From assembly GCA_012813795.1 (NCBI GenBank), contig GCA_012813795.1_4087.1: 64,000 nt of DNA; one strand, 5' to 3'. Position numbers and translations under genes: made by a program. Below the pieces are notes generated by a model, which ran no database searches, had not been told where the DNA came from, and was given only the letters and a program-made list of their open reading frames with translations. This DNA comes from a phage. Positions 19,525 to 20,015 of the stretch are shown here, in pieces. Every line of letters starts with the position of its first letter. Position 1 is the stretch's first letter.

Positions 19525-19641
19525 TTAAAAAGTAGTACTGGATACTGTTGCAACAATATCCTACAGTGACCATTTTAGCTAAAGGTGAACTGATAATGCC
19601 GAAGCATCTCCACTGTATTGTACCATAATAAGTCCTTCAGC

Positions 19642-19657
19642 TATTCAGTACTGAATA
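19642..19657. repeat. 16-bp perfect palindrome TATTCAGTACTGAATA
   Basis: Read directly; extended form of the iterated CAGTACTG core, in an intergenic region. Confidence 0.9.
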
Positions 19658-19762
19658 CTTACATCCTACGTCTAGGTTTTAAATGTGCACTAGTTGTAAT
19701 GTATAGGCACATACGGGTCTGCTTTTAAGCTACTGATTCGGGAATCACAACCTCCCCTAGTG

Positions 19763-19776
19763 ATTCAGTACTGAAT
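19763..19776. repeat. 14-bp perfect palindrome ATTCAGTACTGAAT
   Basis: Second copy about 120 bp from the first, same intergenic region. Confidence 0.9.
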
Positions 19777-19799
19777 ACGACCGTCTACATTTCGTTCTT

Positions 19800-20015
19800 T
19801 TATGAGAGGATGATGACTGGTACTAATAGTTTTCCATCTTCATCAAATGAATCCGACCAATCTTCCCCAGTCTCTTCAACATCTGTGTCCCCTGCTTGAT
19901 ATGAATGAGCAGCTAGACAGTTACTAATAGCATAGTCATCACAAGGTGTAACATGAATAAGAATATCTGCTTCTGGATTATTCTGTAAAATTTTAATTAG
20001 GTCTTTGGCTTTCAT
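19800..20015 (-). CDS. hypothetical protein (71 aa), paralog of N-terminus of 20028..20429
   Basis: MKAKDLIKILQNNPEADILI vs MKKNDLIKMLQGIEGNPEIVI. Confidence 0.5.
   Translation of the reverse strand: MKAKDLIKILQNNPEADILIHVTPCDDYAISNCLAAHSYQAGDTDVEETGEDWSDSFDEDGKLLVPVIILS

Follow-up and report, generated by a model that had tools for sequence, protein, structure and literature searches.

Short palindromes that lie between or against the -35 and -10 elements serve as core-promoter operators for phage repressors, for LacI- and TetR-type regulators and for MetJ. Some of these units recur after roughly one turn of the helix (10 or 13 bp), and the better or longer copies are intergenic. Met boxes, for instance, are tandem 8-bp palindromes read by the ribbon-helix-helix protein MetJ. 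The palindromic hexamer AGTACT, which we describe here in a clade of jumbo phages, shares these features with operator systems but is ~84% intragenic, occurs ~900 times per genome, is an exact hexamer and has no known cognate protein.

Other described systems rely on many copies of one word. The sites of SlmA in E. coli (GTGAGTACTCAC) and of Noc in Bacillus are, as here, scattered 12–14-bp palindromes; they are read by a dimeric protein for a genome-marking, non-transcriptional purpose, and the SlmA sites even have the same AGTACT core. The phage copies, however, lack the flanks required by SlmA, are ~200 times denser (~2.6 per kb against ~50 sites in 4.6 Mb) and are carried by a lytic phage. 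Chi and the DNA uptake sequences of Neisseria and Haemophilus are, like AGTACT, lineage-specific exact words found about once per 0.4–2 kb, mostly within genes, and kept by DNA-level selection or drive. Those words, with RecBCD and the uptake machinery as known readers, are asymmetric, whereas AGTACT is palindromic and phased with promoter elements. AGTACT is also the recognition site of ScaI and Eco255I (AGT^ACT). The exact 6-bp palindrome and the scarcity of flank information are common to both, but phages normally avoid such sites, and here the site is 6–9x enriched and conserved. Abundant phage proteins such as TF1 of SPO1 and p6 of phi29 occupy many sites on their own genomes, including early promoters, and lower early transcription, with a loose or structural specificity that contrasts with the strict hexamer found here. 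Finally, T4-type PeSL elements place an intergenic early promoter and a stem-loop among small early genes; the locus studied here has a similar layout but is single-copy and not repeated.

The palindrome pair and its non-coding module

By its sequence, the analyzed 64-kb stretch of DNA (the window) belongs to an Asteriusvirus (121Q/PBECO4-like) jumbo coliphage: over the 2.6 kb that surround the locus, it is ~86–96% identical to Asteriusvirus jumbo coliphages (121Q, PBECO4, UE-S1, TH47, A4, and others). Nearly all the genes of the window are on the minus strand. Its first ~30 kb form an early-type region with small ORFs, tRNAs, and sigma-70-type promoters, and genes for replication (topoisomerase II subunits and clamp loader) lie at its far end.

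A preliminary description of this DNA had pointed to two long perfect palindromes resembling paired operators, and both were found where it placed them. Palindrome 1, ATTCAGTACTGAAT, occupies 19763–19776 and is the upstream copy relative to minus-strand transcription; palindrome 2, TATTCAGTACTGAATA, occupies 19642–19657, 120 bp away from centre to centre. The 12-mer TTCAGTACTGAA occurs five times in the window, where 0.01 copies would be expected, with starts at 17850, 19644, 19764, 38567, and 44138, and 47 copies are found (5.2 expected) when up to two mismatches are allowed. The three copies outside the pair had also been listed, two of them with slightly wrong coordinates: those at 38567–38578 and 44138–44149, both intragenic, had been misplaced by 1 and 3 bases, respectively. 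The copy at 17850–17861 sits in the next non-coding gap, 35 bp from CAGTACTGAA (core 17817–17824), but it overlaps the stop codon of the ORF at 17851–18129 and is not purely intergenic, as had been proposed.

The length of these palindromes was evaluated with a model in which the flank preferences of all AGTACT sites are treated as independent. In the window, five 12-mers and two 14-mers were observed for 0.95 and 0.09 expected, and the 350 kb analyzed of phage TH47 hold twenty 12-mers for 4.5 expected and three 14-mers for 0.44 expected. Two of the three TH47 14-mers are palindromes 1 and 2, which are 121 bp apart in that genome, and the 16-mer of palindrome 2 is present there as a single copy. 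The intergenic share rises from 16% for the 6-mers to 30% for the 12-mers and to 3/3 for the 14-mers, with non-coding DNA at ~11%. Extension past the AGTACT hexamer is beyond chance, and the longer palindromes are an excess subclass shifted to intergenic DNA. The suggested series of high-affinity long sites and low-affinity short sites fits this excess, but it is the exact hexamer that is selected, with little information in the flanks.

The pair belongs to a non-coding module on the minus strand, which is preserved as a block also between different flanking genes. The 227-bp spacer proposed previously relied on an ORF at 19382–19573, the frame of which is not conserved (the length of a T-run varies and indels occur), so that the real non-coding module spans ~19496–19799. 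The extended -10 element, the UUCG-capped hairpin, and the GGGGAGG tract described with it were all recovered, on the minus strand. On that strand, GGGGAGG (the complement of 19751–19757) lies in the loop of a hairpin with the arms GAATCAC and GTGATTC at 19742–19766. The 105 nt between the palindromes (19658–19762, minus strand) are conserved in an alignment of 18 relatives. No covariation was found in this central segment, and an apparent compensatory pair, GTAT/ATAC, was rejected as pairing evidence because all four base combinations occur.

Nineteen bases after palindrome 2 lies TGGTACAAT (19625–19617, minus strand), a predicted sigma-70 extended -10 promoter, with TG one base upstream of a TAnnnT hexamer, an arrangement in which the -35 is dispensable. 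It has no usable -35, which is why it was missed by the consensus scan. Transcription is predicted to start near 19610, and palindrome 2 covers ~-47 to -32 of this promoter, with its centre at ~-39.5.

Next on the minus strand comes a 5′ hairpin (19592–19611) with a UUCG cap, which is replaced by UCCG in other haplotypes and by a predicted UCG triloop in the commonest. A two-part stem of similar shape (-5.9 to -7.2 kcal/mol) is predicted for each of the five haplotypes, between which one G-C pair of the stem is replaced by A-U. The stretch that follows, AUCAGUUCACCUUUAGCUAAA (19573–19591, minus strand), is invariant (0/19 columns vary among the 18 relatives), mostly unpaired in the minimum-free-energy fold of the window sequence, and separates the 5′ hairpin from a second one. 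This second hairpin and its U5 run (19527–19572 in all, minus strand) are terminator-like in the predicted fold: an interrupted stem of 16 pairs at 19533–19572 (-12.5 kcal/mol, z = -2.3) ends 1 nt before the U5 run at 19527–19531. It includes a third AGTACT (19534–19539) and shows one compensatory G-C to A-U change in two relatives. Its A+U-rich stem fails the G+C rule of the terminator scan and was not called by it.

Taken together, the module appears to encode a candidate small RNA of ~80 nt with its own putative promoter and a hairpin at each end. The region would also yield a phage small RNA beside a tRNA cluster, just upstream of the promoter of the tRNA-Thr unit. This sigma-70 promoter, TTGACA-N16-TATAAT (19497–19524, minus strand), has 12/12 consensus matches and serves downstream small ORFs and the tRNA-Thr (19131–19204). 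A search of Rfam 15 with positions 19000–20100 (E up to 10) returned the tRNA-Thr only. When the 311-nt module was searched for as a repeated cassette, one full copy was found in the window and one in TH47, and only the palindrome recurs.

Palindrome 1 is unchanged in 17 of the 18 relatives, and the other one has TGAGT at an outer position. Palindrome 2 is intact in 13 relatives, the remaining five, namely CMSTMSU, G17, WPEC3, BF17, and fEgEco12, sharing an AGTTCT that destroys the core. No compensating change accompanies either the AGTTCT variants or the changed palindrome 1. The palindromes are spaced by 120 bp in the window and in three relatives (four sequences) and by 121 bp in 14 other relatives. 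Among the same 18 relatives, 18 of the 106 columns between the palindromes vary, the promoter-proximal half being almost invariant; 3 of 89 columns are variable in the block 19700–19612, which holds palindrome 2 and the promoter, and the 25 nt from palindrome 2 through the -10 are invariant in the alignment. Conservation of the two palindromes and of their spacing in relatives, suggested earlier as a check, was therefore found (120–121 bp throughout), but with 17/18 and 13/18 intact copies it does not exceed that of the surrounding block. The AGTTCT relatives also imply that a phage can be viable without the palindrome 2 core. The pair is best described as the longest copies of a clade-wide motif, not as a private operator set.

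Selection on AGTACT and its distribution in the clade

AGTACT is present in 146 copies in the window and in 909 copies in the 350 kb of TH47, where 118 would be expected (7.7x). No other 6-bp palindrome comes close to it in over-representation in that sequence, from which many palindromes are missing. Its density is ~1 per 400 bp, or ~2.6 per kb, at ~20–25 per 10 kb throughout, with a peak of 61–75 per 10 kb in an early-type region of TH47, where 2 kb are poor in ORFs and four copies stand upstream of a promoter as a 13-bp tandem array. The information of the motif is concentrated in the exact hexamer, as single-mismatch variants are only 1–2.2x enriched compared to 7.7x for AGTACT itself. In the window, a modest preference for C before and G after the hexamer was observed, and the commonest 8-mers are TCAGTACT and CAGTACTG.

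About 84% of the window copies (~123–124 of 146) are intragenic, in all three reading frames. Synonymous-codon shuffling left 30 ± 4.7 intragenic copies and codon-order shuffling 19, against 124 observed, which, with the use of all three frames, rules out a codon or dipeptide artefact. Similarly, CAGTACTG was found 27 times in genes and 1.9 times after synonymous-codon shuffling. TH47, which is 78% identical overall, retains 50 of the 94 alignable AGTACT sites of the window, compared to ~29.5% for control hexamers. At third codon positions, identity reaches 77.3% within the motif but 61.4% elsewhere (p = 2e-5); at codon positions 1 and 2 the two values are not significantly different. AGTACT is maintained by selection at the DNA level. 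The iterated core that the preliminary description had noticed genome-wide is thus a palindrome under selection, as judged from synonymous shuffles, TH47 retention, and third-codon identity alike.

Paralogous genes or repeated cassettes were considered as the source of the motif and rejected, the module being single-copy and the occurrence in all frames unexplained by paralogy. In RaK2, the 16-mer sits within a paralogous gene family encoding SVLN and shows no synteny with the module; paralogy therefore supplies some copies, yet it cannot account for all frames. A motif at 18792, considered as a site kept across a frame shift relative to phage JNE01, proved to be in the same frame in both. No kilobase-scale regular spacing of AGTACT was seen (CV 0.93, roughly Poisson), and the profile of its positions relative to start codons is flat, without preference.

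To follow the motif across the clade, we used 15 Rak2-like loci with a topoisomerase II at least 69% identical, including those of 121Q, RaK2, and GAP32. AGTACT is the top palindromic hexamer in all 15. It is 6–9x enriched in 14 of them (45–65 copies per 22 kb, 7.3 expected) and ~4x in the 121Q locus (30 copies in 22 kb). It is not the top hexamer or enriched in four more distant jumbo relatives, nor is it enriched in Pseudomonas phage PA5oct (3 copies, 16.6 expected) or in a 50-kb sample of E. coli K-12 (11 copies, 12.6 expected, 0.22 per kb). The flanks differ by lineage, with CAGTACTG in TH47 and RaK2 and AAGTACTT in GAP32-like phages, and a G beside the hexamer is depleted in every lineage (0.33–0.59x). 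Such a lineage-specific preference fits a reader that might be co-evolving with the phage. Scans of metagenomes and of IMG/VR for diverged copies of the module added only one contig plus 121Q.

Placement in early promoters and the nature of the proposed reader

In the intergenic sigma-70-type promoters of the window, the hexamer overlaps the upstream end of the -35 (AGTACTTGACA), overlaps its downstream end (TTGACAGTACTG), or adjoins the -10 as CAGTACTG(N)TATAAT. Only a subset of the window promoters carries the motif; those at 46644, 45436, and 8356, for example, are free of it. All the examples described here are early promoters on the minus strand. In TTGACAGTACTatcCAGTACTGATATAAT (25754–25782), motif copies lie at the -35 and at the -10, 10 bp apart; in TTGACT-aaatagttCAGTACTG-TATAAT (22536–22563), the motif adjoins the -10; in AGTACTTGACAGTACTG...TACAAT (8014–8047, also listed as 8042), it flanks the -35 hexamer on both sides; and in TTGACA-gaagatatCAGTACTG-TATAAT (2885–2912) and TTGACAGTACTGaataatagcagTATAAT (2536–2564), it lies against a promoter element. 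The same placement was recovered in TH47, where the motif centres cluster at ~-17, -27, and -37. The gaps between the motif and -10-like hexamers in this genome peak at 1–2, 11–12, 21, and 32 bp (34, 24, 38, and 29 cases, respectively) over a flat background of ~17 cases, with a period of about one helical turn. This placement of the hexamer against -35 and -10 elements, in steps of ~10 bp, is operator-like, and because the motif adjoins these elements, a bound protein would collide with sigma-70. The earlier idea of paired operators is partly supported in that the motif family adjoins -35 and -10 elements and its long copies are in excess, but the pair itself is less supported: palindrome 2 is 24 bp from its -10 hexamer, which is not a recurrent phased distance and is 3 bp off the 21-bp class.

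The explanation that we favor, tentatively and at not quite an even chance, is that the palindromes are the highest-information copies of an AGTACT recognition element, read most likely by a symmetric DNA-binding factor. The exact hexamer would be recognized at the DNA level, often extended to TTCAGTACTGAA in this lineage, by a reader that would most likely be dimeric and sequence-specific, and probably phage-encoded. Where the hexamer adjoins a -35 or -10, sigma-70 would have to compete with the bound factor, which could turn the early promoter off; through this competition, the site would act as an operator. The same factor, present in abundance, would also bind the intragenic copies and might silence the genome globally, coat the DNA, or mark it as the phage's own. 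Cooperative binding or looping could make palindrome 1, which lies 120 bp upstream, an auxiliary site.

This explanation is consistent with the enrichment, the DNA-level selection, the promoter phasing, and the excess of long palindromes with their rising intergenic share, as well as with the lineage-specific flanks, the conservation of the module, and the compensatory changes in the 5′ hairpin haplotypes and the terminator-like hairpin. Several observations argue against it. The concentration of information in the exact hexamer (variants at 1–2.2x versus 7.7x) is more typical of restriction or modification enzymes, and a distribution that is ~84% intragenic, Poisson-like (CV 0.93), and indifferent to start codons is unusual among regulators. 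Palindrome 2 does not occupy a recurrent phased position, its core is lost in 5/18 relatives and palindrome 1 is altered in 1/18, in both cases without compensation, and the two are conserved no more than the surrounding block. In addition, among the ORFs of the window no recognizable DNA-binding fold was found besides a sigma-70 family factor and an HNH endonuclease.

Candidates for the reader were sought among the 111 ORFs of the window. A Pfam scan of these ORFs revealed no repressor-type fold; it identified the sigma-70 family factor, the endonuclease (HNH/NUMOD4), and a weak gp33-like match. The sole methylase of the window is a small, intein-containing C5 enzyme, 100% identical to its counterpart in phage A4, and belongs to a group that reportedly methylates CpG in RaK2. 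The DNA of RaK2 has been reported to be CpG-methylated, although the data are not shown there (PMC3622015). This methylase is unlikely to be the reader, as AGTACT contains no CpG and RaK2-type methylation is reported as CpG. We also looked for a C-to-T footprint, and AGTATT/AATACT is the least enriched neighbor of the motif (1.13x), giving no sign of deamination.

An enriched (6–9x), promoter-linked hexamer conserved at synonymous sites across a clade of 350-kb phages points to an undescribed DNA-reading system, which could regulate globally, mark the phage's own DNA, or do both. The promoter analysis of phage CBB, which cites GAP32, lists RpoD-like, TGAAACG-type, and late ATAAATA-type motifs, and that of PA5oct lists TTGAC/TATAATA promoters; AGTACT is mentioned in neither. 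We found no mention of an AGTACT motif in the open-access papers searched on RaK2, CBB, PA5oct, and jumbo-phage comparative genomics, and searches for AGTACT or CAGTACTG with phage or jumbo phage, and for Asteriusvirus promoters, returned nothing relevant. The selected, clade-specific AGTACT word, combined with a total loss of GCGC, is a broader and more interesting result than the pair, and one that appears undescribed in the literature searched.

Alternative explanations and the missing GCGC

As the main rival, we considered an enzyme that acts on AGTACT to mark or process phage DNA, for instance a methyltransferase, a nickase, or some other activity of the restriction/modification kind. The pair would then have no operator role, and the long palindromes would be ordinary copies whose flanks match by chance or because of local duplication. 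Such an enzyme would be expected to read an exact 6-bp palindrome, and AGTACT, which carries next to no information in its flanks, is identical to the ScaI/Eco255I site; the near-uniform, Poisson-like scatter through genes, the density contrast between the phage (2.6 per kb) and the E. coli sample (0.22 per kb), and a second restriction-like signature in the clade, the complete absence of GCGC, all point the same way, as does the fact that Rak2-like phages encode DNA methyltransferases. No cognate AGTACT enzyme was found, however: the only methylase of the window is the small C5 enzyme, ill-suited to a site without CpG if it methylates as reported for RaK2 (PMC3622015), and no deamination footprint is seen (1.13x for AGTATT/AATACT). 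An enzyme target alone would also leave the selection on sites, the excess of 12-mers, and the phasing with -35 and -10 elements unexplained. We consider this explanation possible, if rather doubtful.

The motif could also be real and the pair without any special function, both palindromes being dispensable by-products of a very conserved block upstream of a promoter. Their conservation does equal that of the block, the core of palindrome 2 is destroyed in five of 18 viable phages, and palindrome 2 is off the phased positions. On the other hand, one module holds two of the three 14-mers of TH47, separated by 121 bp there and by 120 bp in the window, when 0.44 would be expected genome-wide, and palindrome 1 is kept in 17 of 18 relatives; such an explanation seems unlikely.

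At the RNA level, palindromes 1 and 2 might pair in a read-through transcript from the upstream gene, forming a duplex of 15 contiguous pairs (~21 with flanks) that closes a domain of ~105 nt and could be an RNase III-type processing site or part of a stable RNA, as in the tRNA region of T4. The location of the module within a tRNA cluster and its conservation as a unit would fit, and RNAalifold does give a long closing helix with a few pairs beyond the palindromes (consensus fold -42 kcal/mol). Yet no compensatory change was seen in any of the 43 predicted pairs, the AGTTCT of five relatives would put a U-U mismatch at the centre of the helix, no promoter for such an RNA was found except by read-through, and no Rfam family matches. 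Moreover, the arms of a helix need be neither palindromes nor copies of a genome-wide DNA motif. This possibility seems to us very improbable.

Recruitment of host SlmA, by which phage DNA would activate the protein and block host division, is hardly credible on its published specificity. The AGTACT core and the 12-bp palindromic format are shared with the site of this nucleoid occlusion factor (PMC3020112), and the motif-bearing phages with a known host all infect Enterobacterales, the remaining sampled loci being metagenomic contigs; but SlmA requires G, T, and a purine at positions 1–3 (PMC3020112), in a 12-bp palindrome of GTRAGY half-sites, whereas the phage 12-mer has the half-site TTCAGT, with T, T, and C preferred and an adjacent G depleted (0.33–0.59x); neither the window nor TH47 holds any compatible site and only 1.5% of the half-sites have a GTR flank.

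GCGC is found 0 times in the 350 kb of TH47 and ~7 times per kb in the host. Phage genomes usually avoid short palindromes because restriction enzymes target such sites, and this phage avoids many of them. A more speculative proposal, to which we assign a low probability, is a two-word code by which Rak2-like jumbo phages would tell their own DNA from that of the host, and in which AGTACT (~900 sites) would be read by a phage factor and GCGC would have been purged from the phage. The AGTACT factor would coat, silence, or handle phage DNA, including the shut-off of early promoters, with the two long palindromes as its strongest nucleation sites, and a GCGC-directed activity could destroy or silence host DNA. 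For any such reader, the long palindromes are ready-made probes, and the five AGTTCT isolates are natural mutants of palindrome 2.

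Candidate small RNA and reading frames in the conserved non-coding module

The conserved non-coding module that carries the two long AGTACT palindromes also contains a candidate small RNA of ~80 nt, located on the minus strand at 19527-19625. This candidate has an extended -10 promoter, a UNCG-capped 5′ hairpin retained across compensatory haplotypes, a 19-nt invariant segment that includes CACCUUU, and finally a terminator-like hairpin with a U5 run after it. A search of Rfam gave no family match for it.

The 227-bp spacer (19574-19800) of the preliminary description takes one of its edges from a 63-codon ORF on the minus strand (19382-19573) that is probably spurious. 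Its 5′ part overlaps both the candidate RNA and a T-run whose length varies; frame-shifting indels in the same part distinguish the relatives. The plus-strand ORF annotated over palindrome 2 (19642-19657) in several database records looks spurious too.

Gene content around the module

The genes flanking the module vary among relatives, a pattern that suggests modular shuffling of this part of the genome. ARAGORN called a tRNA-Ser with the anticodon ACT at 20972-21063 (minus strand); an A at the wobble position is unusual in bacteria and phages. One relative annotates a tRNA-Ile in the cluster holding this gene. An HNH/NUMOD4 homing-type endonuclease gene (21124-21681, minus strand) adjoins the tRNA genes.

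Other motif-bearing non-coding stretches

The next non-coding gap (17591-17850) contains two copies of the AGTACT motif, 35 bp apart, and an 11-bp inverted repeat, GATAGCTTCTG...CAGAAGCTATC. Within the loop of this repeat lies one motif copy along with a CCTCC tract, a layout that mirrors the GGGGAGG loop adjoining palindrome 1 (19763-19776). Outside the window, a stretch of about 2 kb in the Asteriusvirus relative TH47 (104250-106300, locus L020) is dense in AGTACT and has no ORFs of at least 60 codons. It harbors four AGTACT copies in tandem, repeating every 13 bp, upstream of a promoter (AGTACTTGCATA...TATAAT). Recurring GAATTTTGGGCGTAA... elements in this stretch may represent non-coding RNAs. 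Among the 6-bp palindromes of TH47, GTGCAC ranks second in over-representation (2.5×), and one copy falls at 19680-19720 of the window, inside the nearly invariant block immediately upstream of palindrome 2 (CTAGTGCACATTTAAAACCTAG).

Loss of GCGC, methyltransferase and sigma factor

GCGC is absent from the window (0 vs 55 expected), from the 350 kb read of TH47 (loci L018-L024; 0 vs about 325 expected), and from each of the Rak2-like loci examined (L025-L039 covered). It is found in Pseudomonas phage PA5oct and in distant jumbo relatives, and is very common in E. coli (357 in a 50-kb sample). The clade showing this loss is the one enriched in AGTACT. TH47 also lacks CAGCTG, AGCGCT, AGGCCT, CGTACG, and GGTACC.

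The window encodes a C5 cytosine DNA methyltransferase (32273-34171, minus strand) that is split by an intein carrying Hint and LAGLIDADG domains and is 100% identical to the phage A4 gene; other Asteriusvirus phages and CBB have homologues without the intein. A phage-encoded sigma-70 family factor with regions 2, 3, and 4 lies on the minus strand of the early region, at about 5.3-6.9 kb.
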